NCBI GenBank assembly: GCA_964373795.1
Contig: CAYJVY010000006.1
Location: forward strand, 28,468 to 92,467
Direction of reading: 5' to 3'
From: an uncultured archaeon
GTDB taxonomy: Archaea; Iainarchaeota; Iainarchaeia; Iainarchaeales; DATDZZ01
DNA length: 64,000 nt
Below are positions 5,842 through 49,837 of the stretch, piece by piece. The notes under the pieces are model-generated. The model ran no database searches. It was not told the DNA's origin and saw only the letters and a list, made by a program, of their open reading frames with translations. The first letter of the stretch is position 1. The number at the start of each line of letters is the position of its first letter. The position numbers were made by a program, and so were the translations under genes.

Positions 5842-6092
5842 AATACCACCCCTTAACCATTTAAAACGGTTAAATTAGTTTAAAAAAATACAAATTTTAG
5901 TAAAAAAATTTGTTTATAATAATTAATCCTAACTTATTTAAATACTTTTCGGTTGAAGAGCTCTAATAAGGCTTTTTTTTCAAAAAAGCCCAAAATAAAC
6001 GTTTTTTCCATTCAATTTCTTCTCCAAAATTAGCTTGTCAATTCATGGTTTAAATGGAAAAGTTAATAAAGTTCTTATGTATAATTATTATT

Positions 6093-16472: not shown

Positions 16473-16516
16473 TTCAACTCCCTAGAGCAGTTCACAAAGT
16501 TTTATTTTTGCGCCAA

Positions 16517-16903: not shown

Positions 16904-17142
16904 TATTTGATTGCCCCTGATATTTTGTGTATTCTTTTACCTATTTTCTGATTGGTTTCTTTTACATGTTTTTGAATTGTTTTTGCTTCTTCGTCTGTTA
17001 AAATCCCGGCAAGCTCCAAAAGAGATCTTTGCCTGGCTATGCGTTTTATAACATCAGTAAAGCTTTCATATTCTTTTTTTTGGGAAGCAAGAATGTCATA
17101 GGCGTCTTCCCCAATTGAAATAGTTTTTGTAGCCATGTACAT
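16903..17142 (-). CDS. vapB: Putative VapB-type antitoxin (small 79-aa partner)
   Basis: 79-aa ORF whose stop overlaps the start of the PIN gene by 1 nt. This is the arrangement typical of archaeal vapBC pairs. Confidence 0.5.
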   Translation of the reverse strand: MYMATKTISIGEDAYDILASQKKEYESFTDVIKRIARQRSLLELAGILTDEEAKTIQKHVKETNQKIGKRIHKISGAIK

Positions 17143-17429
17143 GTATATATGTGTATGTAATATAAAAGCATTTTGTATGCCATAACTTAGTTGAATTTTG
17201 ACACTATGTTTTTTAAGTCCATTTAAATTCCCATCATTTTTTTTAAGGCTTGTACTCTTCTTTTTAGGGTTTTGATTTTCGTTTTCCAGATTTTTTTGCG
17301 CGTGAATTAAATTGTTCTTGTGTTACTCTTAGTCCTTGAAGAAATATTGCAAAATCTTGATCAGCTCTTATTTTTCTAGAACTGCGTTTTCTAAGCATTA
17401 TAAAAAATTAGGAAAAGAAATTAATATAT

Positions 17430-19718
17430 TTACCTATTTTTCTTTTTTCTCTTAACAGTGAATAAATAGTATCCTGTAATTAAAAGCAATAAAACTGCTC
17501 CTATTCCTAGTGCAGTGTTTTCAATTCCTCCAAGTCCAAGTAAACCAGTTGGAGGAGTCTTCAATTCAATTGCTACACAGCTTCCATTACTACAAACCTT
17601 GTTATCTGCACAAGAAATTCCGTTTACTTCATTTGAATAACTACAAGTTCCATTAGAAGAATTACAAGAATCAATTGTACAAGGATTATTATCGTTACAG
17701 CTTATGCTCTCACATAAGTTAGATGTTTTTGGCTCTGAAGTAATTGTTTTGGATTTTTCAGGCAAGGTTAAATCAACAACTAAAGGAGCAGCAAATAAAT
17801 TAAATGCTTCTTGAGTAACTTTTTTCTTTACAGTGTAACTTAGTTTAACTGTCTCTCCAGCCTTTAATTCTTTTACAATGAATTGAATTACTGGATCAGA
17901 TTTTAATACAATGAATTCAAAGCTGCTTGAAAGCTCGTTTGCATCAAATGCAATTTCTTTTGGCACTACTTCAACTACTTTAACATTTTTCAAAATTTCT
18001 GTTCCAGGATTTGAAACGCTTACCCCAATAGTTGAAGCAAAGCTTTCCTTGCTTCCTTGAACAGTTTTTTCTACTTTTAAGTCTCTTGAAAATTCAACTC
18101 TATTATTTAATGCTTCTAATGCAACTGAATTTTTTTCAACATTAATTTCTTCTAAAACTTTTTTAATTGAATCAGGAGTTACTTTAACTTCTTTATTTGT
18201 TTCCAATTCAATAGTTGTTTTAGGCTGTAAAGGAGTTGTAGGACTTCCGCCAGGTGCAGGAGGATTAGTTGTTCCTCCACCACTATTTTGACTAGGAGCA
18301 GCATTAACTACTACTGAGACACTTAAATTATTGTCTGTTTCACTTGATTCATTGAAAGAGTTTTCAGGATCTAATGAAAAAGTATAAGTGTGAGTTGCAA
18401 CACTTGAAGGAGTAATTGAATAAGTTAAAGTTTTTTCTTGTCCTGCAGTTAAATCAAGTGATTGACTATTTAAATCAGTTGAACCTTCTTTTAATTTCAC
18501 TGTAACTCCAATTACAGAGCTTACTTGAGACTTGAATACAGCAGTTAAAGTTACACTGCTTCCAACAGTAATGCTTGAACTTGAAGCAGTAAAGGAAACT
18601 GCATTTAAATCAAAGCTTCCAGGATTGCTTGGTTGAACAGTAATTAATTGATTTAAATCATTGTTTGTTTCACTGCATTCAGCAATTGCTTTAGAGCCAT
18701 CTGCTACTACTTTTACTACATGATTTCCTGTTTTATTCGAAGTATTCCAATCTATTGAAACAGTTACAGAACTATTTGCATCCAAAGAAGAAACAGTATT
18801 CTTGTCAATTTGTCCTTGAGAATTCAAGAAATTAACATCAAAAGGAGTTGAAATATTTGTATCTCCAGTGTTTTGAATAACTGCGGAAATTCTTACAATG
18901 TTTCCATCAATTGGATTAGAGTTATTAAAAGTTAAATCTGAAACCCTTAAATTAGGGCCAACAAAATTAAAGTCCTTGCTTATACTAACGCTTGGCTTTG
19001 GAGTTCCATTCAAGTTTTGATAAGTAACAATTGCTCCAAGAGAAGTGCTTCCACAAGTTAAAGGATTTACATTAAAATGCCTTGAATTAGAAGCATTAGA
19101 TCCGGCTAATTGAAATCCAGCATAAGCTGAAACATTTGAATCAAATACAGTTGAAGTAGAAGGATTTAATGACACAACTACATGATTTGCATCTTGAGCT
19201 CCTTTATTTGTCATTAAAACTCCAAAAGTAAAAGGCACTCCAAGAGTCTGAGTTCCTGAAACAGAAGGAGAAATTCCTGCATTCAAATCAGCTTCATATT
19301 CAACAGTATGATTAATGTCACATAAAGGTAAAACACTGTTTACATCAGTTAATTTAAAGTTTACATCAAAAGACGTAGTTGAATTATTCATGTCAAAAGA
19401 ATAACTTGCAGTTGAATGACTAATTGAAACATTATTTGAACTAATTAAGTTCACTCCAGCTGGAACAAAAATATTCAAGTCTTCAAAAGCATTTGCATTG
19501 CTTGTTCCAAAATATTTTGGAGGAGGTAATCCATCTATATATCCATTTTGATCTGTAACTGAAACAGTGAAAGTTCCATTTGAATAATCAGAGGTAACTT
19601 TAAAACTAATATTTGAACAAACAGTTGTAGAACTAGTAGCAGCTTGAACGCTGGACAAGAATGCAAGTAATGCAATCAAAACAAAAAACTTTGAATAATT
19701 CACTTCTTCACCATACAA
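17430..19718 (-). CDS. Secreted S/T/N-rich surface protein with C-terminal Cys-rich module and single C-terminal TM anchor
   Basis: N-terminal signal-like hydrophobic segment. The C-terminus is CESISCNDNNPCTIDSCNSSNGTCSYSNE...GSCV, then GAVLLLLITGYYLFTV, then KRKKKNR. It lies 63 bp downstream of the giant gene on the same strand. Confidence 0.7.
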   Translation of the reverse strand: MYGEEVNYSKFFVLIALLAFLSSVQAATSSTTVCSNISFKVTSDYSNGTFTVSVTDQNGYIDGLPPPKYFGTSNANAFEDLNIFVPAGVNLISSNNVSISHSTASYSFDMNNSTTSFDVNFKLTDVNSVLPLCDINHTVEYEADLNAGISPSVSGTQTLGVPFTFGVLMTNKGAQDANHVVVSLNPSTSTVFDSNVSAYAGFQLAGSNASNSRHFNVNPLTCGSTSLGAIVTYQNLNGTPKPSVSISKDFNFVGPNLRVSDLTFNNSNPIDGNIVRISAVIQNTGDTNISTPFDVNFLNSQGQIDKNTVSSLDANSSVTVSIDWNTSNKTGNHVVKVVADGSKAIAECSETNNDLNQLITVQPSNPGSFDLNAVSFTASSSSITVGSSVTLTAVFKSQVSSVIGVTVKLKEGSTDLNSQSLDLTAGQEKTLTYSITPSSVATHTYTFSLDPENSFNESSETDNNLSVSVVVNAAPSQNSGGGTTNPPAPGGSPTTPLQPKTTIELETNKEVKVTPDSIKKVLEEINVEKNSVALEALNNRVEFSRDLKVEKTVQGSKESFASTIGVSVSNPGTEILKNVKVVEVVPKEIAFDANELSSSFEFIVLKSDPVIQFIVKELKAGETVKLSYTVKKKVTQEAFNLFAAPLVVDLTLPEKSKTITSEPKTSNLCESISCNDNNPCTIDSCNSSNGTCSYSNEVNGISCADNKVCSNGSCVAIELKTPPTGLLGLGGIENTALGIGAVLLLLITGYYLFTVKRKKKNR

Positions 19719-19781
19719 AATAAATCTTAAATGTTGTATATATTACTGATTTTTAATATATAAATATTCTTCTTTTAAACA

Positions 19782-22700
19782 TTATGTAACAGTTACAACC
19801 CTTGTTACAGTTGCCTGATCTAATGTATTTGCTCCTGCTTTAACTGTAACTAGATAACTTCCAGGGTTTGGCATATTCATTTGCCAATAATAATCTTCAC
19901 TTGATAACTTGTTTACATCTAGTGAAGCATTTGCATTTGCTCCAGCTGATTCTGATGCAACTACATTGAATACTCCGTTTACATCTACTTGGATTGGCAA
20001 ACTCTTGAAATTCTCTTGGCTTTGAGTAAAGTTTTCAAACACAGCTATTGTGAAAAAGTTTGCCCCAGCAGTTACACTTGAAGGAGGGTAATTGCTTGAA
20101 TTAAAGAATCTTGCATTAATTGTGTCTACAACACTCCAAACAGTTAAACTATAGTCTTTTGAATTATCTGTAGTACTAGTTTCTCCTGTTACTGGAACTG
20201 CATGAACTGTTAAAATAGTTGAACCCTTGTTATTTGCATCCCATGAAAACCTCATTGGAAGAGTTTGACCTGCAGCAATCCTCACTACATTGTAATCAAA
20301 TATAATTGTTCCAGTGGATGGATTGAATGCCTTTAATTGAACATTTACATCTTCTGAAACATTTCCTGCATTGAATACATTTGCATCAACTGAAATGTCT
20401 TGGTTATACAAATAAGTTGTAGTGCTTGCTTTTCCGTAAACAATTGAATCAACTCTTACATCATGTGTTGCTTGAACAGTTACATTTTTTGTTTTATTAT
20501 TATCACTTAAATTTACTTCTCCTGTTACAGAGTCAACTGAAACCTTTAATTCAAATACTCCTTCACTTGTTGGAGTGAAATTAAATGAATAAATTGCAAT
20601 TTGTCCTGGAGCAAGATTAGTTAAAGTAACTGTTTCTTGTAATACTCCATTCACAAAAAAGCGAACATTACTTGACTCTAAAACATTTCCAATATTTGAT
20701 ATATTTGCATCAACTACTGTAGTTGAATTAATTGCTACTGTTCCAGGAGCGGAAAGAGAATCTGTTCTCAAATCATGACTTGCAATGCTTACAACATTAA
20801 ATGAAAAAGATTTCACTGCTTGAGTTCCAAGTTTATCTGAAACAAATACATTTACATCATGGCTTCCAACACTTAAATTACTTAAAGAAGTAAAAGTTAC
20901 TTTATTTGCTGAAACATTTGCATTAGCAGTTACGTTATTGCCGTCCAAAAATAATTGCACTGAATTCAAGTCAACTCCGCTTAAAGCATCGTTAAAGTCA
21001 GCAGAAATTGTTGGAGTTTGATCTGAAGTATTTTGATCTTGTCCTGGAATTAAATTAGTTATTGTTGGAGCATTACTATCAAAAAACACTGTATCTAATA
21101 CACTTGAACTAGTGTTTCCTACTGCATCAACAAATTTAACGTACACTCCAACTAATCCATTAATTCCATTACATCCAAACGCAGTGTCCATTATATTAAA
21201 GTCTGAGTAAGTTGTAGCGAATGCAATGTTGCTTGTGTATGCAATGTCATTACAAGAAAATTTCATGAATTGAACAGATGTTGTAGCATCGCTTGCAGTT
21301 AATGCAAGTGAAGGTTTTTGATTTTTAGTGAAAGTATTTCCATCTGCAACTACAATTGAAGTTCCTGTTGGAGCAGTTTTATCAACTCTTACATTTAATG
21401 TTGTATTTGATTGATTGTTATCTGCAAAGTCAACTGGCTTTACTCTAAATAAATGATTTCCATCACTTAAAGTATTTGAAACAACAAAGCTCCAATTAGT
21501 TGAACCATTCGCGTCTGTAAAAGAGTTTCCATCAACATTTAATTGAACTTTTCTTATTCCTGTTTCATTGTCAACAGCTGTTCCACTTAAAGTTAGTGGG
21601 AAGTCTGAAGCATTTAAGTCAACATTATTTGTTGGAGAAGTAAATGATGCACTTGGATTATTTAAATCAACATGAATTGTTATAATAGATGAATTTAATC
21701 CATTTAAATCTAAATTATCTTGAGCTTTTACTACTAAATTATAATCTGCCTGAGTTAGTGCACTTAAAGTGAAACTCCAGGAAGTAGTTCCATTAGCGTC
21801 TTGGAAGCTTGTTCCGTTATCTGTTGAAACAAATACTTTTTGTACTCCGCTTCCAGTTCCATCTGAAGCAGTTCCTGAAACAGTTAATGGGAAAGAATTA
21901 TTTCCAGCATTAAAGTCTGAAACAGGGGAAGTAATTAAAGCAGTTGGTTGAGTTGAATCAAATGAAACTGAGTCTGAAACCGCAGTTGAAGAATTTCCAA
22001 TTACATCTTCAAATCCTGCGTAAACTGTTTTCAATCCATCTCCACTAGTACATCCAAATGCTGGATCTAACATATTGAAATCAGAGTAACTTGTAGCAAA
22101 AGGAATATTTGAAGTGAAAGTTATATTATCACAACTGAAACGCATGAATGCAACTCCTGTTCCACTTCCGTCTGAGGCATTTAAAGTTAAAACAGGTTTT
22201 TGCGCATTAGTGAATCCTAAAAGATTTGCAATTGAAATACCTGTATCAGTTGGAGGAGTTTTATCAACAGTTAAAGTAATTGAAGCAGGAGTTAAATCAT
22301 TATTGTCTGCATAATCTCTTGCTTTTGCTTTCAAAGTATAATTTCCATCAACTAAAGTTGGAACATTAAAAGTCCAAGAACTTAAATCATTTGCGTCTGC
22401 AAAAGTCAAACCATTATCTAGGCTTACAAATACTTTTGTTAAACCTGTTCCAACATCTGAAGCTGTTCCAGTAATTGTTAAAGGAAATTGAGCTGCATTT
22501 AAGTCTCCTGAAGGGAAAGTAATTACAGTATTTGGATCAACTAAATCTACATGTAATAATTGAGTTGTTAAACTTACTTGGTTTTGATCTAAATTGTCTT
22601 GAGCTTTTGAAATAATATTATAATCTCCTGAAGTTAGAGATGCAATTGAAAAACTCCAGTTAGTTGAACCATTTGCGTCTGCAAATGTTGCACCATTATC

Positions 22701-25700
22701 TAAGCTTATGAATACTTTTTTCACTCCTGCACCTGAATCAAAAGAGGTTCCTGAAACAGTTAATGGAAATGCATTTAATCCTGCATTGAAATCATTTACA
22801 GGACTTGAAACACTTGAAGTAGGAGGAGTTGTGTCAAAGAAAATTGAATCCAAAACTGAAGCAGATTCATTTCCAACTGCATCAGTGAATTTAACATAAA
22901 TTCCAGTTAAACCATTTAATCCACTGCAACCAAATGCAGGATCTATCATGTTGAAGTCTGAGTAAGTTGTTGCAAAAGCAATGTTGTTTGTGTATGCAAT
23001 ATCATTACAAGAAAATTTCATGAATTGAACAGATGTTGTAGCATCGCTTGCTGTTAAAGTTAGATCTGGTTTTTGATCGTTTGAAAAATTATCTCCATTT
23101 TGAATTACAATTGAAGCTCCAATTGGAGGAGTGGAATCAACTATAATGTTTACGTCAGTGAAACTTGTTTGATTATTGTCAGCGAAATCGTTTGCTTTTG
23201 ATTTCAAGGTATGAACTCCATCTGTTAAAGGAGTTGAAATTACAAAGCTCCAAGCATTAGAGCCATTTGCGTCTGTAAAACTTGTTCCACCATTAGTTGA
23301 AAGGAATACTTTTCTTACCCCAGTAAATGCATCGCTTGCAGTTCCGGAAATTGTTATTGGAAATTCATTTGCATTAAAATCTGATCCATTTAACGGGCTT
23401 GTAATTGTGCTTGAAGGAACAACTGTGTCAATGTGTAATACTAAAGGACCAATTGAAGGAGAATTTTGATCTAAGTTATCTACTACTCTAATGAATATAT
23501 TATAGTTTCCATCTACTGGGCTTCCAAGGTTTCTAGTCCAATTAGTTGTTCCAGTTGCCAAGTTAGGAAAAGTTAATCCTCCATTAGTTGAAACAAATAC
23601 TTGTTTTACTCCACTTCCTGCATCGCTTGCAGTTCCAGTTAAAGTTAAAGGCAATGCATTTGCTCCTGCATTAAAGTCTTGAACAGGTGAAACAAATGCT
23701 CCAGTTGGAGCAGTAGTGTCAAAGAATATTCCATCTGAAACAGCTGTTGAAACATTATTCAAATCATCTGCAAATCTTGCAAAAATTGTTTTATTTCCAT
23801 CTACAGAATTACATCCAAATGTTGAGTCAAGCATATTAAAGTCTGAATATGAAGAAGCAAATGAAACATATGAAGTGAAACTTACATTATCACAAGAGAA
23901 TTGCATGGATGCAACATTTGTTAATGCATCAGTTGATGCAAGAGTTAATGAAGGCTTTTGAACATTAGTAAAGTTTGCTCCGGATGCAATTGAAATTAAA
24001 TTATTTATTGGAGGAGTGGAATCAAATAAAAAGTTCACATCAGTCGAAACTGATTGATTATTGTCTGCAAAGTCTTGAGCTTTAACTTTAATTGAGTAAT
24101 TGCCGTCTGGAAGAGAGGGAATTGAAAAACTCCAAGAATTTGTTCCAGTTGCTTCAGTGAAAGAAATTCCTCCATTAGTTGAAACCAAAACCTTTTTCAC
24201 TCCAACATTATTATCTGAAGCAGTTCCAGTTAAAGTAAAAGGCATGTTTGCATCTGAAAGCCTTGCATTATTGGCTAGATTTGAAATCACTGAATTAGGA
24301 GGAGTTAAATCAACATGCAATAAAACAGTTGAAACACTGGATTGATTTTGATCCAAGTTATCCATTGCTTTTACTTGAACTAAATAATCTCCTGCAGTTA
24401 AACTTGATTTTGAAAAACTCCAGGAAGTAGTTCCATTTGCGTCTTGGAATGAAGCTCCTGAATCAAATGAAAGCCATACAGTTTTCACTCCGCTTCCAGT
24501 TCCATCGCTTGCAGTTCCACTTAAAGTTAATGGGAAAGAATTATTTCCAGCATTAAAGTCTGAAACAGGACTTGAAACATTTGAAGTAGGAGGAGTTGTA
24601 TCGTAATTAACTACTTTACTAATTTGAGTTGAAGAATTTCCTGTAAAGTCTTCAAATACAACGAATACTGTTTTGTTTCCATTTCCTCCAATGCAACCAT
24701 TTACTGGATCTAAAATATTGAAATCAGAATGACTTGAAGCAAATGCAACATTTGCAGGGTAATTCAAGTTATCACAAGAAAATCTCATGAATTTTACTCC
24801 TGTAACAGCATCTAGAGCAGCTAATGAAAGTAATGGTTTGGATAAATTAGTGTATCCAACTCCGTTTGCAATATTCATGTCAGCATTAGTTGGAGGCAAA
24901 TTATCTACTCTGAAATTCAAATCCGCAGTTAAAGAATTATTGTCTGCAAAGTCTTGAGCTTTAACTTTTACTTGATACAATCCATCTGCAGGCAAAGAAA
25001 TAGATTTACTCCAAGAAGTTGTGCCAGTTGCAAGAGTAAAAGTTAAACCATTGTCAGTTGAAAGCCATGCCTGTTTCACTCCAGTTCCAAACCCATCTAA
25101 AGAAGTTCCATTAACATTTAATGGGAACGCACTTGAAGTATAATTTGAATCATTTGAAGGAGAAGAAATTGCAATAGTTGGAATGGTTTTGTCTACGTGA
25201 ATTAAAATTCTTTGAGGAACCTCATTTTGATCTAAATTGTCTTGACCTTTAACTAATACATTGTAATCTCCATCTGATAAATCTGAAATTATAAAGCTCC
25301 AAACACTTGTACCAGTTGCTTCAGCAAATGTTACTCCATTATTTGTTGAAACAAATACTTTTTTCACTCCACTTCCAGTTGAATCAGCTGAAATTCCGGA
25401 AACAGTTAAAGGGAATTTACTTGCATTAAAATTTGAATCATCTGCTGGACTTAAGATAACTGAACTAGGGGCAGTTGAATCAAAGAAAATTGCATCTTGA
25501 AATGCATTTGATTCATTTCCAGCAGTATCACTAAATTTAACATAAACTGTTTTGTTTCCATCACTTGAAGTGCAACCAAATGCTGAGTCAAGCAAATTGA
25601 AGTCTGAGTAAGTTGTAGCGAATGCAATGTTGCTTGTGTAAGCAATATCATTACAAGAAAATTTCATGAATTGAACAGAGGTAGTAACATCTAAAGCTGT

Positions 25701-28700
25701 TAAAGTTAGTGAAGGTTTTTGTGCATTAGTAAAGTTTGCTCCAGATGCAATTAATATTGTTCCAGTTGGAGCAACTGAATCAACTACTACATTAATATCT
25801 GTTAAAACGCTTTGATTGTTGTCTGCAAAGTCATTTGATTTTACTGAGATTGAATAATTTCCATCTATTGGTTGAGTAAATACATTATTCCAGTTACTTG
25901 TTCCAGAAGCCAATTCAAAGTTATTACTTGAACCAAATCTAATCCAAACTTTTTGCACTCCAGTATTGTTATCTGAAGCAGTTCCAGTAACAGTTAAAGG
26001 AAAATTACTTGCCTTAAGTTCAGCTCCATTTAAAGGAGAAACAATTACTGAACTTGGATTAGTTAAATCAACATGTAATAGTTGTGGAATAGTTGTTGAA
26101 CCATTTAAATCTAAATTATCTTGAGCTTTTACTACAAGAGTATAGTCTCCTTGAGTTAAAGACGTTAAAGTATAAGTCCAATTAGTTGTCCCTGTAGCTA
26201 AGTCAAATGAATTTCCATTGTTTGTTGAAACCCAAACTTTTTGCACTCCTGATCCAGTTCCATCGCTTGCAGTTCCGGAAACAGTTAATGGAAAGGAATT
26301 ATTTCCTGCATTAAAATCACTTATTGGATTAACTAAAACAGCATTAGCTCCAGTTGAATCAAAGAAAATTGTTTCACTTGCAATTGCATTATTATCTACA
26401 AGATCTTCAAATGCAACGAAAACAGTTCTATTTCCATCTATAGTTGAACAACCAAATAATGGATCAACTATATTGAAATCAGAATGAGTTGAATTAAATG
26501 CAATGCGTGAAGTAAATGGACCGCTTGCAGAGCAACTGAATTTCATGAATTGCACTCCTGTTGTTGCATCACTTGCATTCAAAGACAAAGAAGGTTTTTG
26601 TTTATTTGTATACAAAGCATTACTTTCAATATTTACATCAGCATTAGTCGGAGAAGTTGAATCAACTCTTACATTAATTGAAGTTAAAGATAATTGATTA
26701 TTGTCAGCTGCATCTTGAGCTTTAATAATTAAATTATGATTTCCATCAGTTAAAGGATTGGAAACAATAAAATTCCAAGAAGTAGTTCCAGTTGCTAAAT
26801 TAAATGAAACTCCTTCATCTAATGAATACCAAATCTTTGAAACCCCTGAATTATTGTCAGCAGCTGTTCCGGAAACAGTTAAAGGAAAATTTCTTGCATT
26901 CAAATCAGCATTATTTAATGGACTTGAAATTATTGAAGTTGGACGAGTTTTATCTACTTGGAATACGCCTCCTAAAAATTCAACAAAATTATTATCCAAG
27001 TTATCTATTACTTTAACATATAAATCATGAGTTCCTTCACTTAAATCAAATACTAAAAAATTCCAATCATTTGCTGTAACTTGATTTCCATCAACAAAGT
27101 TTCCTGAATCTAATTTAAATTGAACTTTATTTAATCCTGATCCTGAATCACTTGAATTAATTGGATAATTAAATGGGAATGCATTCAATCCATATCCTCC
27201 TGGAGGGGTTGCGCCAACTGCATTAATTTGAGGAGCAGTTGAGTCAAAGAAAATATTTTTACTTACAGTTGAAGAAAAACCAACATAGTCAGTAAATTTT
27301 GCATAAACAGTTCTATTTCCATCAGCAGTAGTACAACCGGTTGCAGGATCTAAGATATTGAAATCCGAATGAGTAGTTGCATAAGCAACATTTGAAGAAT
27401 AATTTACATTGTTGCAAGAAAACTGCATGAAGTTAATTCCTGTAACAGAGTCTTCAGCTCTCAAACTCAAAGCAGGTTTTTGTTTTCTAGTAAAGTTTGC
27501 TCCTCCTTCAATGTTTAAATCCAAATTTGTTGGAGCAATGAAATCTAACCTGTAATTCACATCAGTTGTTATAGATTGATTATTGTCAGCGAAATCTTGA
27601 GCTTTAACTTTTAAAGTATAAAATCCTTCTTGCAATGCATCTGGATTAAAAGTATAACTCCAATTAGTTGAACCATTTGCATCTCTGAAAGTAACTCCAC
27701 TGTCAAGTGAAACAAATACTTTTTTTACTCCAACATTATTGTCAGCAGCAGTTCCACTAAAAGTAATTAAACTAAATTGATTAAAATTTGCGTCGCTTAC
27801 TGGAACAGTAACAGTACTAGTTGGAGGAGTTAAATCAACATGAACAACTGTAAAAGTATTGTCAGCTGTGTTTGCTAAATTATCTGTTAATCTAAGAATT
27901 ACTGCATGATCTCCTGCAGTAATAGAGTTGAAAATAAATGAAACAATTGGAACACTTATATTATTTGCATCAACAAAAGTTAAACCATTATCTAAACTCA
28001 ATTGAGCTCTTAAAAGACCAGATCCATTATTTGGATCACTTGCATCAAATGCAAATGTGTAAGGGAAAGAATTTACTCCAATGTTTGCGTCAACGTTTGA
28101 AGCTGAAATTCCTGCAGTAGGAGCTGTTGAATCATAAAACACTTCATCTGAAACAGCAGTTGATTCGTTTCCCACTTCATCTAAAAATTTCACGAAAACA
28201 GATTTATTTCCATCACTTGAATTACATCCAAAAGCTGAATCTAATAAATTAAAATCTGAGTAAGTTGTTGCAAAAGCAATGTTGTTTGTGTATGCAATGT
28301 CATTACAAGAAAATTTCATGAATTGAACAGATGTTGTAGCATCGCTTGCAGTTAATGCAAGTGAAGGTTTTTGATTTTTAGTGAAAGCATTTCCATCTGC
28401 TACAACAATTGATCCAGTTGGAGCAATAGTGTCAAAAACAAAGTTTACATCAGTTAAAACTAATTGATCGTTGTCAGCGAAATCTATTCCAGTTACTTTT
28501 AAATTATTTAATCCTTCAATTGGAGTCAAACTTGGAATACTCCAAGAAGTTGTTCCAGAAGCATTTTGGAATTGCGCTCCATTTAAAGAATATAAAACCT
28601 TTTTTGCCCCAGTAAACGCATCTGAAGAAGTTCCTGAAACAGTGCTTGCGAAAAAACTTGTAGAACTATATTTTGCATTATTTGTTGGAAAAGAAATTGT

Positions 28701-31700
28701 GCTTGAAGGCCTTGTTAAATCAACTGTAATTCTTCTAGAACTTGGTTGAGAGTTTTGATCTAAATTATCTGTAACCTTTGCTTGAATTTCTTTTGCTCCC
28801 TCAGTTAAAGAATTAATTACATAATTCCAATCTCCTGTTCCTGAAGCTAAATTAAATGTTAATCCATTGTTGTCTGAAACCCATACTTGTTTTACTCCAC
28901 TTCCTGCATCGCTTGCAGTTCCAGTTAAAGTAAATGGAAAGAAACTAATTCCTGCATTATAATCTTCCGGAGGGAATAAACTTATTCCAGGCAACCCTGG
29001 AGTTGAGTCAAAGAAAATTCCATCTGAAACAGCTGTAGAAATATTTCCTAAGTCATCAGTGAATTTCACGAAAACTGTTTTATTTCCATCAGAGGAAGTG
29101 CAACCAACTGTTGAATCCAATATATTAAAATCCGAATGACTTGATGCAAACGCTACATTTGAAGTAAAGCTAGTTCCATTACAGCTAAACTGCATTTGAG
29201 TAACAGTTCCAAGTGCATCACTTGAAGCAAGAGTTAATGAAGGCTTTTGAGCATTAGTGAAATTTGCTCCTCCAGAAATTGAAATTGAATTATTTGTCGG
29301 AGGAGTTGTATCTACTATGAAATTTCTGTCAACAACTATTGCATTGTTGTCAGCGAAATCTGAAGCCAAAACTCTTACATTATGGGATCCATCTGCAGGC
29401 AAAGAAATTGTTTTACTCCAAGAAGTTGTGCCAGTTACAAGAGTAAATGCTGCATTGTCAAGACTTACATATACTTCTTTTACTCCAGTGAATGCATCTG
29501 AAGTTGCACCAGTTAAAGTAAAAGGAAAATTACCTGCATTTAATTTAGTTGTTCCAGCCAAAGCCAAATTAATTGATCCAGGTTCTGGAGCAGTTGGAAG
29601 AGTTAAATCAACTTTTACTGTTAATTTTTTATTACTTAAAGGGGTTTCGACTTGCCCTAAATTGTCTGTTGCTTTTGAAACAAAAATATAAGTTCCTTCA
29701 GTTAGAGAATTAATTACTGTATTCCAATTATTTGTTCCAGTAACATTTGAAAAAGTTGCTTCATTATTTGTTGAGAGTTGAACTAACTGTACTCCGGCTC
29801 CTGCGCCATCGCTTGCAGTTCCAGAAACACTTAAAGGAAATTTGCTTGCATTCAAATTTGAATCATTTGTTAAAGAAATACTTGAAGTAGGAGAAGTTAA
29901 ATCCAAAGTAAAAGAATCGCTTACAGCTGTTGAAGAATTTTGCAATTCGTCTTCAAATATTGCGAAAATTGTTTTCAATCCATCAACTGAATTACAACCA
30001 AATTGATTTGAACTCAAATCAAGTTGACTTGAAGTTGTTGTGAATGAAAAATTTGAAGTATAAGGCCCTGTTTGAGAACAACTAAATCTCATAAATGCAA
30101 CGCTTGTAGTTGTATCGCTTGAACTCAAAGTAAGAGTAGGAGTTACGTCGTTTGAAAACCCATTTGTTTTAGAAATTGAAACTGAATTACTTGCAGGAGC
30201 AGTAGTGTCTAAGGTTAGAGTTAAATTTGTTGTAACAGTTTGTTCATTGAATGCATTATCTAATGCTTTTACAACTAAATTAATTGCTCCATCAGTAAAA
30301 GAAGAACCAAAACTAATGCTCCAATTAGATCCATTTAAAGTTGTTTCTTGAAATGTTATTCCACCATCTTTTGAAGCAAATACTTTTTTCACTCCACTCA
30401 AAGAATCGCTTGCAGTTCCTGAAACAATTAATGGAAGATTACTTGAATTAATTTTTTGCCCATTAGAATGAGAAGTAATAGTTGAAGTAGGTTTAGTTGC
30501 ATCAAAAGTAATTGCATCTGAAACACTTGAAGAAGTGTTTCCTAAATCATCTAAGAATTTTACGAAAACGTTTTTAGTTCCTTCAGTTGAATTACATCCA
30601 GTTGCTCCATTTGTTAAATTAAATTGAGAGTAAGTTGTTGCAAAGTTTACTGCAGGAGAAAAATTTGTTCCATCACAAGAAAACTGCATTTGAGTAACAG
30701 TTCCTAAAGCATCTTGAGATGCAAGAGTTAATTTTGGATTTGAAGAATTTGAAAATTGATTTCCATCCGCTATTACAATAGAATTATTTGTCGGAGGAGT
30801 AGTGTCTACTTGAATTGTTATTCCTGCAGAAGGAGTTTCAAGATTTCCAGTTCCATCAGTTGCACGAGTTTGAATTAAGTGATTTCCATTACTTAAAGCA
30901 CTTGAAGGAGTAAAACTCCAACTAGTTGTACCAGTTGCTTGAGTAAAACTTCCTCCATCAATTGAAACTTCCACTTTTGTTATTCCACTAAATAAATCTG
31001 AAGCTGTTCCAGTAAAAGTTGGACTTGTATTGCTTGTTCTTTGTCCATTTGAATGAGAAGAAATACTTGAAGTTGGAGCAGTTATATCGTAAACAATTGA
31101 ATCCAAAATTGAAGCTGAAACATTTCCAACTCCATCCTTTAATTGCAAGTAAACGTTTTTTGTTCCTTCACTTAAAGTACAACCTAGAGCAGAATCGAGT
31201 AAATTAAATCCATTAACTAAAGGAGCTAATGCAGTGAAAGTTGAAAAAGTTGAATCATTGCATGAAAATCTCATTAAAGATGTTCCAACAATATTGTCTG
31301 AAGCAGTTACAGCTAAACTCACTAATCCGTTTGCAGTAAAAGCATTTCCATTATTAATTGCAAGAGTTCCAGTTGGAGCAGTTGAATCAATTGTTACAGT
31401 TACATTTGCATCCGAAACATTTCCAGCATTATCTGTTGCATTTACGCTGTATCTAAAGCTACCATTTTTTCCTGTAATGCTGCGAGGCTCAACAATTAAA
31501 TCAGTTAAAGTTAAAGAAGAATAATTTTTTGAATTTCCTTGAGTTGTAAGTGGAGTTACATTTAGCTTTGTTTCCCCATAAGTTGTTTGATTTAATCCGC
31601 TTACATTATCAGTTAAATTAAATTTTAAAGCAAAATTTGCAGAATTATCAGGGCCATAACTTACTCCATTAACTGGTTCAGTTATTGAAATTGTTGGAGG

Positions 31701-32354
31701 AGTTACATCAAAAATAATTTGATCTGAAACAGTTAAAGGATTGTTACTTAAATCAAATCCTTTTACATAAACAGTTCTAATTCCTTCAGTTGAATTACAT
31801 CCTGCTCCTGATTCATTTGATAAATTAAATGACTTGCTTGAAGTGAATGCTTGCTGTGAAGTGAAGTTCACATTGTCACAACTGAATTGAAGAGAATTAA
31901 TATTGTTTCCATCAACTGTTAAAGTAACTTGAGCATTGTTGGAATAAGTTGCTGCATTATTAATTGAAGCACTTAAACTTCCAACCGCTGGAGGAGCAGT
32001 GTCTAAAAGAATTGCACTTGTTTGAGTTCCCAAATCAAAAGTGCTTCCGTTTGAAGCAATTCCAATTCCTGTTACTCCAACAACTTTTAATCCATCTCCA
32101 CCAATTAAATTCCATGAATGAGTATAAGTTCCAGCAGGCTTTGTAAAGCTTTGTTGCTGGCTTTGACCATCAAATACTGTGTAAACATGTGAAATTCCTC
32201 CTGAAACAGAAACAGTTACATTTATTGCAGGATTATTAGTTGTAGTTGAACCATTATTTAATGAAACACTTAAAGCAGCGAAAGCTATAGAAGAAACTAT
32301 AAGTAATCCAATTAATACGTAGAGATATCTAAAGGTTGAACTAAATGATCCCAC
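19782..32354 (-). CDS. Giant (4190 aa) secreted surface protein with about 14 tandem two-domain repeat units and C-terminal CARDB-like domains
   Basis: N-terminal signal peptide MGSFSSTFRYLYVLIGLLIVSSIAFA. There is a repeated roughly 200-aa unit. It contains M(K/R/Q)FSC(N/D)...F(A/S)...DFN(L/I/M)LD...GC(N/T)S.DGNK.V(F/Y)VKF.D and TGTASD..(S/T)GV(K/Q)KV.VS.D.G..F..A.GT..WS. The last ~500 aa show CARDB-like segments (DLRTDSLSAPGTVAINSTTVVDANISNIGNV...). Antisense ORFs inside the gene are artefacts. Confidence 0.85.
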   Translation of the reverse strand: MGSFSSTFRYLYVLIGLLIVSSIAFAALSVSLNNGSTTTNNPAINVTVSVSGGISHVYTVFDGQSQQQSFTKPAGTYTHSWNLIGGDGLKVVGVTGIGIASNGSTFDLGTQTSAILLDTAPPAVGSLSASINNAATYSNNAQVTLTVDGNNINSLQFSCDNVNFTSQQAFTSSKSFNLSNESGAGCNSTEGIRTVYVKGFDLSNNPLTVSDQIIFDVTPPTISITEPVNGVSYGPDNSANFALKFNLTDNVSGLNQTTYGETKLNVTPLTTQGNSKNYSSLTLTDLIVEPRSITGKNGSFRYSVNATDNAGNVSDANVTVTIDSTAPTGTLAINNGNAFTANGLVSLAVTASDNIVGTSLMRFSCNDSTFSTFTALAPLVNGFNLLDSALGCTLSEGTKNVYLQLKDGVGNVSASILDSIVYDITAPTSSISSHSNGQRTSNTSPTFTGTASDLFSGITKVEVSIDGGSFTQATGTTSWSFTPSSALSNGNHLIQTRATDGTGNLETPSAGITIQVDTTPPTNNSIVIADGNQFSNSSNPKLTLASQDALGTVTQMQFSCDGTNFSPAVNFATTYSQFNLTNGATGCNSTEGTKNVFVKFLDDLGNTSSSVSDAITFDATKPTSTITSHSNGQKINSSNLPLIVSGTASDSLSGVKKVFASKDGGITFQETTLNGSNWSISFGSSFTDGAINLVVKALDNAFNEQTVTTNLTLTLDTTAPASNSVSISKTNGFSNDVTPTLTLSSSDTTTSVAFMRFSCSQTGPYTSNFSFTTTSSQLDLSSNQFGCNSVDGLKTIFAIFEDELQNSSTAVSDSFTLDLTSPTSSISLTNDSNLNASKFPLSVSGTASDGAGAGVQLVQLSTNNEATFSNVTGTNNWNTVINSLTEGTYIFVSKATDNLGQVETPLSNKKLTVKVDLTLPTAPEPGSINLALAGTTKLNAGNFPFTLTGATSDAFTGVKEVYVSLDNAAFTLVTGTTSWSKTISLPADGSHNVRVLASDFADNNAIVVDRNFIVDTTPPTNNSISISGGANFTNAQKPSLTLASSDALGTVTQMQFSCNGTSFTSNVAFASSHSDFNILDSTVGCTSSDGNKTVFVKFTDDLGNISTAVSDGIFFDSTPGLPGISLFPPEDYNAGISFFPFTLTGTASDAGSGVKQVWVSDNNGLTFNLASGTGDWNYVINSLTEGAKEIQAKVTDNLDQNSQPSSRRITVDLTRPSSTISFPTNNAKYSSTSFFASTVSGTSSDAFTGAKKVLYSLNGAQFQNASGTTSWSIPSLTPIEGLNNLKVTGIDFADNDQLVLTDVNFVFDTIAPTGSIVVADGNAFTKNQKPSLALTASDATTSVQFMKFSCNDIAYTNNIAFATTYSDFNLLDSAFGCNSSDGNKSVFVKFLDEVGNESTAVSDEVFYDSTAPTAGISASNVDANIGVNSFPYTFAFDASDPNNGSGLLRAQLSLDNGLTFVDANNISVPIVSFIFNSITAGDHAVILRLTDNLANTADNTFTVVHVDLTPPTSTVTVPVSDANFNQFSLITFSGTAADNNVGVKKVFVSLDSGVTFRDANGSTNWSYTFNPDALQEGFYTLKVKAQDFADNNQSITTDVNYRLDFIAPTNLDLNIEGGANFTRKQKPALSLRAEDSVTGINFMQFSCNNVNYSSNVAYATTHSDFNILDPATGCTTADGNRTVYAKFTDYVGFSSTVSKNIFFDSTAPQINAVGATPPGGYGLNAFPFNYPINSSDSGSGLNKVQFKLDSGNFVDGNQVTANDWNFLVFDLSEGTHDLYVKVIDNLDNNFVEFLGGVFQVDKTRPTSIISSPLNNADLNARNFPLTVSGTAADNNSGVSKIWYSLDEGVSFNLATGTTSWNFIVSNPLTDGNHNLIIKAQDAADNNQLSLTSINVRVDSTSPTNADVNIESNALYTNKQKPSLSLNASDATTGVQFMKFSCSASGPFTSRIAFNSTHSDFNIVDPLFGCSTIDGNRTVFVAFEDLVDNNAIASETIFFDSTGANAVLVNPISDFNAGNNSFPLTVSGTASDGTGSGVQKVWVSTNNGNSFDLATGTTNWTYTLTSLTQGDYTLVVKAQDNLDLNGSTTIPQLLHVDLTNPSSVIVSPLNGAELKASNFPLTVTGTASDNNTGVQKVWIRFGSSNNFELASGTSNWNNVFTQPIDGNYSISVKSNDFADNNQSVLTDINVVVDSVAPTGTILIASGANFTNAQKPSLTLTALDVTTSVQFMKFSCNDIAYTSNIAFATTYSDFNLLDSAFGCTSSDGNKTVYVKFSDTAGNESNAFQDAIFFDSTAPSSVILSPADDSNFNASKFPLTVSGISADSTGSGVKKVFVSTNNGVTFAEATGTSVWSFIISDLSDGDYNVLVKGQDNLDQNEVPQRILIHVDKTIPTIAISSPSNDSNYTSSAFPLNVNGTSLDGFGTGVKQAWLSTDNGLTFTLATGTTSWSKSISLPADGLYQVKVKAQDFADNNSLTADLNFRVDNLPPTNADMNIANGVGYTNLSKPLLSLAALDAVTGVKFMRFSCDNLNYPANVAFASSHSDFNILDPVNGCIGGNGNKTVFVVFEDFTGNSSTQISKVVNYDTTPPTSNVSSPVSDFNAGNNSFPLTLSGTASDGTGSGVKTVWLSFDSGASFQDANGTTSWSFSKSSLTAGDYLVQVKAMDNLDQNQSSVSTVLLHVDLTPPNSVISNLANNARLSDANMPFTLTGTASDNNVGVKKVLVSTNGGISFTEATGTNSWSFSIPSLPDGNYSIKVKAQDFADNNQSVSTDVNFLFDSTPPINNLISIASGANFTNVQKPSLTLASTDALTNVASMQFSCDNVSFTSYVSFASSYSDFNMLDSTFGCNSVDGNKTIFARFADDLNNVSTAVSDGIFFDTTAPTGAFVSPVQDFNAGANALPLTLTGTASDAGSGVKQVFVSTNGGLTFPNLATGTTNWTRNLGSPVDGNYNIFIRVVDNLDQNSPSIGPLVLHIDTVVPSSTITSPLNGSDFNANEFPITISGTASDAFTGVRKVFLSTNGGTSFTDANGSNAWSFVISTPLTDGVHTLKSKANDFADNNQTSFTDVNIIVDSTPPIGASIVIQNGDNFSNDQKPDLTLTASDATTSVQFMKFSCNDIAYTNNIAFATTYSDFNMIDPAFGCSGLNGLTGIYVKFTDAVGNESASVLDSIFFDTTPPTSSVSSPVNDFNAGLNAFPLTVSGTSFDSGAGVKKVFISLDNGATFADANGSTNWSFSIASLTSGDYNIISKAQDNLDQNQVSLTTQLLHVDLVDPNTVITFPSGDLNAAQFPLTITGTASDVGTGLTKVFVSLDNGLTFADANDLSSWTFNVPTLVDGNYTLKAKARDYADNNDLTPASITLTVDKTPPTDTGISIANLLGFTNAQKPVLTLNASDGSGTGVAFMRFSCDNITFTSNIPFATSYSDFNMLDPAFGCTSGDGLKTVYAGFEDVIGNSSTAVSDSVSFDSTQPTALITSPVSDFNAGNNSFPLTVSGTASDGTGSGVQKVFVSTDNGTSFQDANGTTSWSFTLSALTQADYNLVVKAQDNLDLNGLNSSIITIHVDLNNPSASFTSPTNNVDLNASDFPLTLSGTAVDNETGIRKVQLNVDGNSFTDANGSTNWSFVVSNTLSDGNHLFRVKPVDFADNNQSNTTLNVRVDKTAPTGTSIVVADGNTFTKNQKPSLALTASDATTSVQFMKFSCNDIAYTSNIAFATTYSDFNIMDTAFGCNGINGLVGVYVKFVDAVGNTSSSVLDTVFFDSNAPTITNLIPGQDQNTSDQTPTISADFNDALSGVDLNSVQLFLDGNNVTANANVSANKVTFTSLSNLSVGSHDVNVFVSDKLGTQAVKSFSFNVVSIASHDLRTDSLSAPGTVAINSTTVVDANISNIGNVLESSNVRFFVNGVLQETVTLTNLAPGQIAIYSFNFTPTSEGVFELKVSVDSVTGEVNLSDNNKTKNVTVQATHDVRVDSIVYGKASTTTYLYNQDISVDANVFNAGNVSEDVNVQLKAFNPSTGTIIFDYNVVRIAAGQTLPMRFSWDANNKGSTILTVHAVPVTGETSTTDNSKDYSLTVWSVVDTINARFFNSSNYPPSSVTAGANFFTIAVFENFTQSQENFKSLPIQVDVNGVFNVVASESAGANANASLDVNKLSSEDYYWQMNMPNPGSYLVTVKAGANTLDQATVTRVVTVT

Positions 32355-32543
32355 GACTTCACCAAAAATTCTTTTTTTTTACTAAAAAAATTGATTAGAA
32401 CTAGTAAACATTTGTGGCATGCATTGTATTTAAATGTTTCTATAATTGTACTTAAAGAAAAATTTTATAAATCTTCACTTTTTCAAGTAAAAAAATTACT
32501 TCACTCGCTTTTTAATAAAAAATTTGGTTGCAAAAAAATGAAT

Positions 32544-34082
32544 TTATTTTCTTGTTTTTGCTAGAAATCCTTGTTGTTCTCGAGTCATTCCAGTCCTTTG
32601 AGGTGAAAGTTTTCGTGCCTGGCCTGCAACTGCATTGAATAAACTTCCTACATCAACGTTAACGCTTCCTTGCCAAGCATTTCTATCAGCCATTTCAAAT
32701 TCAGCTGTAAAATTTACTCCATTGCCTGTAGTCCACCAACCTCTTAACCCTCCACCAAATTCTTTTCCAAAAGTTAATTCTCTTCTTCCAAGTTTATCAA
32801 AAGTTAAAAATGCTTCAATTCCTCTACCTCTTTCAAGATTTTCTAAACCAATTCCTCCAACAGTTCTTAAAGTATCAGCTGCTTCTTGAATTGATTGATA
32901 ATCTAATTGCAATCTATAAGAAATATTCCATCTATTTCCTGAAGGAGTAAGTTGTGCTCCAGCTTTTTCTAATTCAATTTTTTGATCTGGAGTTAAAGTT
33001 TTTCCTTCAACTCTAATTGATCCATCTCTTCCAATTGGAATTCTTCCAACAAGTAATCCTCTTAGAGAATGAGATCTTAAAATTGGATCGTCTTGAAATG
33101 CATGTTGTAAAGATAAATCAACTTTTCCACCTAAAGCTCTTCTTAAATCAATTCCTGTTACAACTCTTCTACCACTTTCTTTTGTTCCTTCTAGAGGGCC
33201 ATGAACTACTTCTGTTTTAGTCCAACCAGGACCTAAAGCTAAATCAATTCTTCTTCCAAATAAATCAAATTCATGTCCAAACATTAAATCAAATGTTTCC
33301 CTTCTTCTAACATCTCTTAACCTTGTTTTAACATCAATTGGACCAAAAGGAATTGGAGGTTGTGCAACTCCGCCAATTTCAGTTTGAACTTGTCCTGAAA
33401 CAGCTTTATTAGTAGTTGTTTCACTTGATTCATGTTCTCTTAAATATCTTCCACCTAATTTAATATCTGGCAAGTCAAGTGGAAATCTATGAATTACATC
33501 ACTTCCAGTTGTTTTATCTCTTCTAAGAAATTCTATAAACACTCCATCAATTATTCCTAAATCAAAATCTAATTGATTTACTTCTCTTCCAGCATTTTTT
33601 TGAATTCTTGAAACAGTTTCAGTATCAGTTGTAATAACAATTGGAGTTCCATGAATTTCTTGACTTGAAACGCTTCTTGAAGAAGCTGTAGAAGTCTTTG
33701 AAGGTTTTCCTCCAGTTCTTACTCCATAACCATAACTTAAACCAACTTGTCCATCAGGTAAATGAACTGTATTCAAAGAATTTCTAGTTGACCTAGGCAA
33801 GTCAACTCCAGTTTTTTCTCCTGACTTCATTAAAACACAACCTGCAAGCAAAGGAAGAACTAATAATGCAGCTCTGCCACCTCTTTTCCCAGGAAAAACA
33901 GCTGCAACTGGTTTGTTTCCTTTTCTAACAATTACTGCCCCTCTTTTTTTAAAATTTGCAATTTCAGCAGGAGTAGCAGGAGATAATGGTCTAAAAAGTT
34001 TTGCGCCTCTTTCTCTTACGCCTCGTAAAGCTGCACCAGCTTTTTTAAATTCTCTAACAAGTCTTCTTTCAGGTCTTGGCAT
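32544..34082 (-). CDS. Hypothetical beta-rich protein with bacterial-type lipobox (LLAGC) in a G+C-richer segment; true start unclear
   Basis: ORF of 512 aa in a segment visibly richer in G+C than its flanks. LLVLPLLAGC resembles a lipoprotein signal or lipobox. The body is G/R/D/T-rich with alternating patterns. The N-terminal 70 aa of the ORF are probably upstream read-through. Confidence 0.45.
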   Translation of the reverse strand: MPRPERRLVREFKKAGAALRGVRERGAKLFRPLSPATPAEIANFKKRGAVIVRKGNKPVAAVFPGKRGGRAALLVLPLLAGCVLMKSGEKTGVDLPRSTRNSLNTVHLPDGQVGLSYGYGVRTGGKPSKTSTASSRSVSSQEIHGTPIVITTDTETVSRIQKNAGREVNQLDFDLGIIDGVFIEFLRRDKTTGSDVIHRFPLDLPDIKLGGRYLREHESSETTTNKAVSGQVQTEIGGVAQPPIPFGPIDVKTRLRDVRRRETFDLMFGHEFDLFGRRIDLALGPGWTKTEVVHGPLEGTKESGRRVVTGIDLRRALGGKVDLSLQHAFQDDPILRSHSLRGLLVGRIPIGRDGSIRVEGKTLTPDQKIELEKAGAQLTPSGNRWNISYRLQLDYQSIQEAADTLRTVGGIGLENLERGRGIEAFLTFDKLGRRELTFGKEFGGGLRGWWTTGNGVNFTAEFEMADRNAWQGSVNVDVGSLFNAVAGQARKLSPQRTGMTREQQGFLAKTRK

Positions 34083-49828: not shown

Positions 49829-49837
49829 GGTGAGAAA

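Follow-up and report, generated by a model that had tools for sequence, protein, structure and literature searches.

Genes at the locus

The DNA analyzed here is a stretch of 64,000 nucleotides (nt), hereafter the window, from contig CAYJVY010000006.1 of an uncultured archaeon assigned to the Iainarchaeota. Its minus strand carries two neighboring open reading frames (ORFs). One (19782-32354, GTG start) encodes a giant protein of 4190 amino acids (aa) devoid of a membrane anchor, and the other (17430-19718, 762 aa when read from a TTG codon), separated from it by 63 nt, encodes a smaller protein ending in a transmembrane (TM) helix, which we call the anchor protein. The window is archaeal: it has a signal recognition particle RNA of archaeal type (6091-6366) and a GC content of about 31%, and it also encodes a proteasome-activating ATPase, FtsZ, and a form III-type RuBisCO. 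A preliminary description of this DNA, made from the sequence alone, had proposed that the products of the two genes may form an anchored complex. We recovered the two-gene arrangement and the 63-nt gap that it reported, as well as the signal peptides on both proteins, visible as hydrophobic N-termini.

The giant protein consists of a signal peptide, an immunoglobulin-like (Ig) domain, three A-B units of about 200 aa each, ten A-B-C units of about 293 aa each, a further A domain, and a C-terminal module made of one Ig domain, two CARDB domains, and a last domain, for a total of about 42 beta-sandwich domains (Table 1). Its 28 cysteines form 14 pairs, one per A domain, with partners 27-28 residues apart in the pattern FSC...GC, and these pairs probably make disulfides. 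The repeats had been described as about 14 two-domain units with two cysteines each: the 14 pairs are there, but only the first 3 units have two domains, the next 10 have three, and the 14th A domain stands alone. When aligned with each other (alignment A1), the ten A-B-C units share 47-55% of their protein sequence, with C43 and C70 invariant and with many invariant Asp and Asn at the domain borders, a distribution compatible with stiffening by Ca2+. Most copies share 60-80% of their DNA sequence, and Tandem Repeats Finder does not report a repeat with a period of 880 nt in the gene because the copies are too diverged. The longest exact DNA repeat of the gene has 102 nt and occurs at 21233-21334 and 28286-28387, i.e., 7053 nt (eight units) apart. 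The A domains of units 6, 9, 12, and 14 are almost identical over about 35 aa, which suggests either recent gene conversion or a higher-order repeat of three units.

The whole giant protein matches the Pfam families Big_7 (E 1e-115, 378.8 bits over 16 stretches) and Big_13 (E 4e-84, 278.1 bits over 10 stretches), both above the gathering score, while the A domain alone has a weak match to Big_13 (21.5 bits for a cut-off of 27). As the preliminary description had suggested, we predicted the structure of a repeat unit. The AlphaFold2 model of one A-B-C unit, computed with the ten units as alignment, has a predicted local distance difference test (pLDDT) score of 88 and shows three beta-sandwiches. 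A Foldseek search of the PDB with this model gave as top matches 2yn5, 4p99, 5irb, and 6xi3 (E 1e-10 to 7e-9), the best ones being extender regions of giant adhesins: SiiE, the ice-binding adhesin MpIBP of Marinomonas, and a large adhesion protein. At the other end of the protein, the expected CARDB domains (PF07705) score 32-41.6 bits for a cut-off of 22.7 (E 1.6e-10 on the C-terminal fragment), the fragment also matches Big_13 (E 1.2e-5), and the last domain, of about 130 aa, matches no family. A word-indexed protein search with the C-terminus returned a single weak match. The protein had been said to have neither anchor nor sorting signal, and this holds: hydropathy shows no hydrophobic segment besides the signal peptide, hence no TM segment, and no sorting-signal model matches. 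We propose that the C-terminal module is the docking end of the molecule.

The anchor protein more likely starts at the GTG codon at 19703, which would make it 757 aa long rather than the 762 aa previously given, a length that stands for the ORF read from TTG. We favor this codon because a GGTGA motif (19708-19712) lies 4 nt upstream of it, just past the 63-nt spacer, in the same geometry as in the giant gene, and because 757 aa is the length recorded in the protein collection. The protein is rich in Ser, Asn, and Thr. Its N-terminal region (about 220 aa) has no Pfam match, and is followed by CARDB domains (72.9 bits for the cut-off of 22.7, E 2.6e-20, 2 stretches), a Ser/Gly/Pro linker, and a C-terminal region that we call the cassette. 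The AlphaFold2 model of the cassette, computed with 24 family members (pLDDT 89), shows a strand and a helical hairpin, a beta-sandwich, a compact Cys-rich module, a floppy linker, and a TM helix followed by KRKKKNR. This agrees with the composition and the order of Cys-rich module, single TM helix, and basic tail described before, except that the module has eight cysteines and not nine. Against Dicty_CTDC (PF00526, cut-off 27 bits), the module scores 28.7 bits when the C-terminal fragment is searched and 26.9 bits when the entire protein is, and against DUF11 (PF01345, cut-off 24.6 bits) the beta-sandwich scores 26.4 and 21.9 bits, respectively. The tail scores 10.9-11.3 bits with LPXTG_anchor (cut-off 15.9) and 7.6 with PEP_CTERM (cut-off 16), PGF-CTERM is unmatched, and no archaeosortase homolog is encoded in the window. 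A canonical sorting signal was thus rejected for both proteins, since no model reaches its cut-off.

Both proteins have many N-x-S/T sequons, as had been noticed. There are 2.86 per 100 aa in the giant protein and 2.62 in the anchor protein, for 0.71 in the other proteins of the window, i.e., they are about 4 times denser, and the density in the giant protein exceeds that expected from composition with a z of about 2.4. An Alg14-like gene (PF08660, E 2e-21) adjoins an Alg13-like gene (Glyco_tran_28_C, E 5e-16) at 49373-50320 on the plus strand. Their products would act at an early step in the assembly of N-glycans. The dense sequons and this gene pair are compatible with heavy N-glycosylation of the two surface proteins.

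Table 1. Features of the two genes and of related loci. Positions refer to the window unless a locus is named.
Feature	Position	Strand	Basis
Giant gene, secreted anchorless protein, ~42 beta-sandwich domains	19782..32354	-	ORF, translation, Pfam, hydropathy
GGTGA Shine-Dalgarno-like motif of giant gene, 4 nt 5' of its GTG start	32359..32363	-	read from sequence
Signal peptide of giant protein, residues 1-27, ...SSIAFA/AL	32274..32354	-	translation, hydropathy; cleavage site inferred
N-terminal Ig domain, residues 28-116	32007..32273	-	Pfam Big_7 E 4.5e-5 on fragment
Three A-B units (A, Cys-pair domain), residues 117-716	30207..32006	-	Cys positions, unit segmentation
Ten A-B-C units, residues 717-3658	21381..30206	-	alignment A1, AlphaFold2, Foldseek
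14th A domain, stand-alone, residues 3659-3758	21081..21380	-	Cys positions, segmentation
Anchorless C-terminal module (Ig, two CARDB, C-terminal domain ~130 aa), residues 3759-4190	19785..21080	-	Pfam; L091 homology
Spacer between the two genes, 63 nt, with TATA-like TTTATATA at 19757-19764	19719..19781	-	read from sequence
Anchor gene, predicted type I membrane protein	17430..19718	-	ORF, translation; 757-aa form on record as P0001
Signal peptide of anchor protein, MNYSKFFVLIALLAFLSSVQA	19641..19703	-	translation, hydropathy
N-terminal ectodomain region, residues 27-250; proposed cargo-binding part	18969..19640	-	27-29% identical to P0111
Two CARDB domains, residues ~251-475	18294..18968	-	Pfam; PDB 2l0d match
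C-terminal anchor cassette, residues 500-762	17433..18221	-	HMMER family, alignment A2, AlphaFold2
Cassette beta-sandwich, DUF11-like, residues 542-651	17766..18095	-	
8-Cys module, residues 669-714, Dicty_CTDC-like CxDxNPCTxDSC motif	17577..17714	-	Cys positions, Pfam, A2
TM helix (residues 736-755) and KRKKKNR cytoplasmic tail	17433..17513	-	translation, model, hydropathy
Pair L094/95 (~1500-aa/~510-aa family): anchorless 1560 aa, cassette protein 511 aa, gap 23 nt	L094/L095 3295-9536		
Pair L097/98 (same family): anchorless at least 1494 aa, cassette protein 516 aa, gap 6 nt	L097 1-6042		
Pair L099/100 (same family): anchorless 1480 aa, cassette protein 507 aa, gap -1 nt	L099 1509-7474		
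Pair L092/93: anchorless 550 aa (YadA-head-like), cassette protein 435 aa, gap 98 nt			
Pair L018: anchorless 1717 aa, cassette protein 335 aa, gap 13 nt			
Pair L063: anchorless at least 1562 aa, cassette protein 372 aa, gap 9 nt			
Pair L005: anchorless 863 aa, cassette protein 437 aa, gap 83 nt			
Secreted protein of ~590 aa next to a cassette gene	L002 5644-7446; L003 4595-6376; L004 2473-4320; L012 1712-3478		

A homologous gene pair in a different organism

A search for relatives in which the two protein types co-occur, a check proposed in the preliminary description, found one case. It is a metagenome contig from the Joint Genome Institute (L091) with a GC content of 41%, as opposed to 31% in the window. 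It encodes a protein of 841 aa (P0111), with its own signal peptide, that is homologous to the whole anchor protein (residues 3-759, 26-29% identity, E 1.6e-40). Immediately upstream of P0111 lies a gene whose product aligns over 378 aa with the Ig-CARDB-CARDB-C-terminal module of the giant protein (38% identity, E 1e-80). This product has no TM segment at its end, and the gene stops 8 nt before P0111. Its stop codon overlaps a GGTGA motif, which, together with the short gap, argues for the co-transcription of the L091 pair. Apart from the giant and anchor proteins, no protein of the window matches this contig. Judged from these homologies, the two-gene arrangement of a giant-type and an anchor-type protein is conserved, with the split at the same position, in an organism clearly distinct from that of the window. 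The juxtamembrane segment also has a motif in common, PTG[LF][LF]GLG (window 17514-17558, anchor residues ~721-735; L091 ~3480-3530), which reads TPPTGLLGLGG in the anchor protein and GPTGFFGLGA in P0111, and which is kept although the two proteins are just 26-29% identical overall.

The integrity of the two genes was also checked in an independent Logan assembly, which is 100% identical to the window across the junction of both genes (16021-21228); the contig is also carried by the run ERR3478686 of the source sample. This assembly breaks 5 nt from the 102-nt exact repeat, so it covers the gene junction and not the number of repeats in the giant gene; of the frameshift and assembly collapse raised as concerns beforehand, it therefore addresses the former at the junction and does not reach across the repeats. 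Because the L091 pair is split at the same place and the independent assembly is identical across the junction, we consider these as two separate genes rather than one split gene, and the evidence supports the view that they belong together.

A widespread C-terminal cassette

The cassette of the anchor protein defines a large protein family. A HMMER search with residues 500-762 of the anchor protein identified 722 representative proteins at E<=1e-3, including 216 at E<=1e-10, and more than 150 cassette positions are present in 123 of the best 150 matches. In a looser scan (phmmer score >65), the 110 cassette-bearing matches were 165-2080 aa long. The match is nearly always at the very C-terminus. 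An alignment of 24 sequences (A2), of which the anchor protein of the window is the query and the first row, has as invariant positions seven of the eight cysteines, an Asn, a Pro-Lys, an Asp-Pro, and a Phe, all of which are present in the anchor protein; the eighth Cys is found in at least 90% of the sequences. Pfam covers these 24 members in fragments (Dicty_CTDC in 14 at E<=0.01, DUF11 in 6, and ADAMTS_CR_2 in 6), it has no dedicated family for the cassette, and no solved structure is a specific relative. The family becomes visible just through exhaustive HMMER searches: word-indexed searches retrieved, for the whole anchor protein, the protein itself and partial CARDB matches, and, for the cassette profile, 11 matches, mostly to the Cys motif.

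The full-cassette matches in the species-level genome collection were all, nine out of nine, in metagenome-assembled genomes (MAGs) of DPANN archaea, five of which are labelled Candidatus Iainarchaeum, including I. andersonii. Around 70 of the 80 loci of the genome scan are from Myxococcota (mostly) and other bacteria and match just the Cys motif C[DN]D[SN]NPCT, leaving nine useful archaeal loci; the metagenome scan for the cassette gave 9 loci. The motif is very common in MAGs of Myxococcota and other bacteria (L006, L008-L011, L013-L017, and about 60 more loci), usually in multi-copy Cys-rich repeat proteins, and the 8-Cys module is therefore shared far beyond the archaeal cassette.

Most cassette proteins bear their own ectodomain. 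Ig domains are among those fused to the cassette: domains of the B/C type occur in 20 of the 123 cassette proteins and a Cys domain of the A type in P0101. The third gene of L091 encodes giant-type Ig repeats, including a match to the A domain; the same product also matches the beta-sandwich of the cassette and has a TM segment at its C-terminus. To judge by this diversity of partners, the cassette is a modular, promiscuous C-terminal anchor and does not mark a dedicated anchor family.

The tails of the cassette proteins are plain TM helices with basic ends. A universal motif preceding the TM helix was considered and rejected, as sub-clades share short motifs of which none is common to all; in one sub-clade, for example, D[YN][TS] stands where the helix begins. 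In two loci, archaeosortase-like genes (L092 8996-9577; L101 3179-3739) lie 1-5 kb from the genes of the cassette proteins P0082 and P0125. They match Pfam Exosortase_EpsH, have the conserved motifs ELCTG and NHIRI, and are adjoined by YadA-head-like anchorless proteins. Some of the cassette tails might thus be sorting signals that undergo processing. Downstream of the cassette gene, four archaeal loci encode a conserved secreted protein of about 590 aa that ends in ...MYF..K.I.K.EY..FM..Y. (Table 1).

Recurrence of the layout with unrelated partners

In several loci that are not homologous to the pair of the window, a large anchorless protein with a signal peptide is encoded directly upstream, and on the same strand, of a cassette protein (Table 1). 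Three of these pairs (L094/95, L097/98, and L099/100) make one family, whose large proteins are 26-27% identical to each other and which occurs in three DPANN genomes with GC contents of 35-50%. Given that their sizes and layout resemble those of the SlaA and SlaB proteins described below, they may be, by analogy, the surface layer (S-layer) protein and its anchor in those archaea. To quantify the association, we compared the cassette genes with all the other genes of the same 24 loci. An anchorless secreted protein is the upstream neighbor of 8 of 22 cassette genes and of 6 of 196 other genes (odds ratio 18, Fisher p 6e-6). The C-termini of the putative cargos and the N-terminal domains of the anchors are unrelated between pair families, which fits a constant stalk carrying a variable, cognate binding domain. 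The recurrence in non-homologous pair families thus lends real support to an arrangement in which an anchorless cargo goes with an anchored partner.

Comparison with known systems

Among known systems, the closest functional analog of the pair is SlaA/SlaB of Sulfolobales, the accessory-protein mode of S-layer anchoring, in which archaeal S-layers are held by co-expressed accessory proteins (bioRxiv 10.1101/2024.05.28.596244). As in the window, a large Sec-exported anchorless protein is encoded directly 5' of a smaller protein with a signal peptide, beta-sandwiches, and a single C-terminal TM segment. The differences are that no S-layer family is among the Pfam or NCBIfam matches of the pair, that the stalk of the cassette is modelled as a beta-sandwich with an 8-Cys module whereas that of SlaB is a coiled coil, and that the giant protein lines up about 42 Ig-like domains and is three times as long as SlaA, with no indication of lattice formation. 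The S-layer proteins tabulated for DPANN phyla in the supplement of the same study have about 750-1040 aa (bioRxiv 10.1101/2024.05.28.596244).

The repeats themselves are closest to those of the bacterial giant adhesins with bacterial Ig-like (BIg) domains, of the SiiE, MpIBP, and LapA/Bap type, which have long extenders of tandem beta-sandwiches of about 95-100 aa and provide the best structural match of the A-B-C unit. These adhesins are exported by type I secretion through a C-terminal signal and retained by an N-terminal plug in an outer-membrane pore. The giant protein of the window, in contrast, has a Sec signal peptide in an archaeal host without outer membrane, matches neither RTX repeats nor any type I secretion family, and is presumably held at its C-terminus by a separate protein.

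Giant proteins with a signal peptide and mostly tandem Ig-like domains have been proposed to mediate host contact in nanohaloarchaea (SPEARE; SVXNc_0300 and BNXNv_0298), and these have a TM segment of their own and, after it, a VirB4/TraG-like ATPase domain in the cytoplasm (PMC10266531). They resemble the giant protein in that a small-genome DPANN archaeon spends more than 12 kb on a tandem Ig-like surface protein, and differ from it in that the latter has neither TM segment nor ATPase domain, its anchoring being left to a second gene. Finally, the end of the cassette, with a short motif, a TM helix, and a basic tail, is reminiscent of archaeosortase/exosortase signals (PGF-CTERM, PEP-CTERM) and of LPXTG signals; unlike these, it has no PGF, PEP, or LPXTG motif, no family-wide motif, and no model scoring above its cut-off.

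Other genes of the window

The gene upstream of the giant gene (32544-34082, minus strand, gap 190 nt) encodes 512 aa without any match in Pfam or NCBIfam. In its product, a lipobox-like GRAALLVLPLLAGC around residues 68-85 comes after a very Arg-rich N-terminus, and translation may in fact begin at an internal GTG, which would yield a lipoprotein of about 450 aa. Two more predicted surface proteins with a lipobox are encoded on the plus strand of the window, one at 35216-36472 (LIFLIGC) and one at 59735-62635 (LLAGC), the latter with 966 aa and a von Willebrand factor A domain. Strongly Arg/Lys-rich N-termini are found in many ORFs (7178-8341, 8970-9824, 34487-35149, 39605-40150, 41421-41753, 51793-52533, and 56262-56915), six of these seven having no Pfam match and the other, 39605-40150, matching GNAT acetyltransferases; they are likewise found in the related archaeal loci L005, L085, and L086. 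Just 3' of the anchor gene lies a toxin-antitoxin pair (16517-17137, minus strand), made of a PIN/VapC gene and a small upstream ORF. Just 3' of P0111 there is a toxin-antitoxin of another type (L091 3775-4278), made of ParE and a small ORF.

Proposed mechanism and alternatives

We interpret the giant and anchor genes as a conserved two-gene surface module of a DPANN-type archaeon, in which an anchorless fiber would be held by a membrane protein encoded next to it, and we put the probability of this reading at roughly 0.55, i.e., somewhat better than even. Both proteins would be exported by the Sec pathway, the giant one probably with N-glycans. The anchor protein would be held in the membrane by its C-terminal helix, with the 8-Cys module and the beta-sandwich as a short stalk, and its ectodomain (the N-terminal region and the two CARDB domains) would bind the C-terminal module of the giant protein non-covalently. 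The fiber would then project from the cell with the N-terminus of the giant protein outward, much as SlaB holds the anchorless SlaA. In structural work on SiiE, each domain reportedly adds 3.3-4 nm, and at this spacing the fiber would be about 140-170 nm long. It might serve in attachment to a host or to a substrate. The anchored complex of the preliminary description is thus backed by the pair kept in L091 and by the recurrence of the layout, while the physical docking itself is inferred.

Several observations weigh against this interpretation. Both structure predictions cover single chains. The C-terminal module of the giant protein and the ectodomain of the anchor protein have no sequence similarity except for the CARDB domains present in both, and a paralogy between the module and the anchor protein was rejected (BLASTP E 0.1). 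We found a single orthologous pair, whose upstream gene is truncated where the contig ends. In the window, the spacer of 63-78 nt carries a TATA-like box, so that co-transcription there is putative, and this box leaves an independent transcription of the anchor gene possible. The neighbor counts lack phylogenetic independence, as some loci are orthologs of each other and two were picked because they are orthologs of a known pair; about 6 independent pair families remain. Lastly, the cassette is a generic anchor, and some 60% of the examined cassette genes lack an anchorless neighbor, so the adjacency seen in pairs could reflect the clustering of surface-protein genes.

These points bear most directly on the first alternative, that the two products are independent surface proteins within a cluster of such genes, the giant one being released or held by the S-layer, by glycans, or by another protein. 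It is consistent with the occurrence of the cassette on very diverse proteins, most of them with a large ectodomain of their own, with the many cassette genes lacking an anchorless neighbor, with the TATA-like box of the spacer, with the further surface and lipobox proteins of the window, and with the putative nature of the interaction. Nevertheless, it leaves unaccounted that the pair is adjacent, with an 8-nt gap, in a contig that is 10 GC points apart and has no other gene in common with the window, that anchorless neighbors are enriched 18-fold over the other genes of the same loci, and that a second pair family is kept in three genomes. For these reasons, we regard independence as rather unlikely.

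A second alternative has the two proteins build a two-component coat of the S-layer type, with the giant protein as lattice or canopy and the downstream protein as its membrane stalk, and no adhesive fiber. The layout of a large anchorless protein followed by a smaller TM-anchored one is indeed that of SlaA/SlaB, the sequons are dense, and the pair family of about 1500 aa and 510 aa in related archaea has SlaA/SlaB-like sizes. However, a tandem array of 42 domains of near-identical fold is best matched by the extenders of fibrillar adhesins (SiiE, MpIBP), no S-layer family of Pfam or NCBIfam was matched, and 4190 aa is far above the size range tabulated for DPANN S-layer proteins, all of which makes such a coat improbable. 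The last alternative, an artefact in which an error of sequencing or assembly cut one gene in two, or a mis-assembly altered the number of repeats, could draw on the 102-nt exact repeat inside the giant gene (21233 and 28286), on the break of the independent short-read assembly beside it, and on the relatives with Ig repeats fused to the cassette, but it is very hard to sustain given the signal peptide and Shine-Dalgarno-like motif of the downstream gene, the identical junction in that assembly, the L091 pair, which has the same split and a signal peptide of its own, repeats that are 60-80% identical in DNA, and an open frame of 12.6 kb at 31% GC, which is not expected by chance.

The interpretation as a fiber and its neighbor-encoded anchor may be extended to the other pairs. 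Cassette membrane proteins would be, across Iainarchaeota-like DPANN archaea, a general two-component system of surface display, with a stalk and anchor that stay constant and an N-terminal socket that varies, into which a cognate, upstream-encoded anchorless cargo docks. The cargo would differ from pair to pair: in some it would be an S-layer-like protein of about 1500 aa or a YadA-head-like protein, and in the window it would be a fiber with some 42 Ig domains and a length of about 150 nm, reaching a host cell or a substrate. We put this generalization forward tentatively, and its chances seem to us a little short of even.

Implications for the surface of DPANN archaea

To our knowledge, little has been established on how DPANN archaea build their surface and attach to partners, and the majority of their surface proteins are unannotated. 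What is new at this locus is an undescribed and widespread DPANN anchor cassette; the principle by which a membrane subunit encoded by a separate gene retains a surface protein that has no anchor is a known one. The locus defines a C-terminal anchor module that folds confidently in prediction and has neither a dedicated family nor a solved structure. It also offers the hypothesis that a cognate cassette protein, the product of the adjacent gene, retains anchorless surface proteins, including giant fibers. If this is false, the locus would contain two neighboring ordinary surface proteins. If it is true, surface complexes, possibly including the S-layer and its anchor, would become predictable from sequence in uncultivated archaea.

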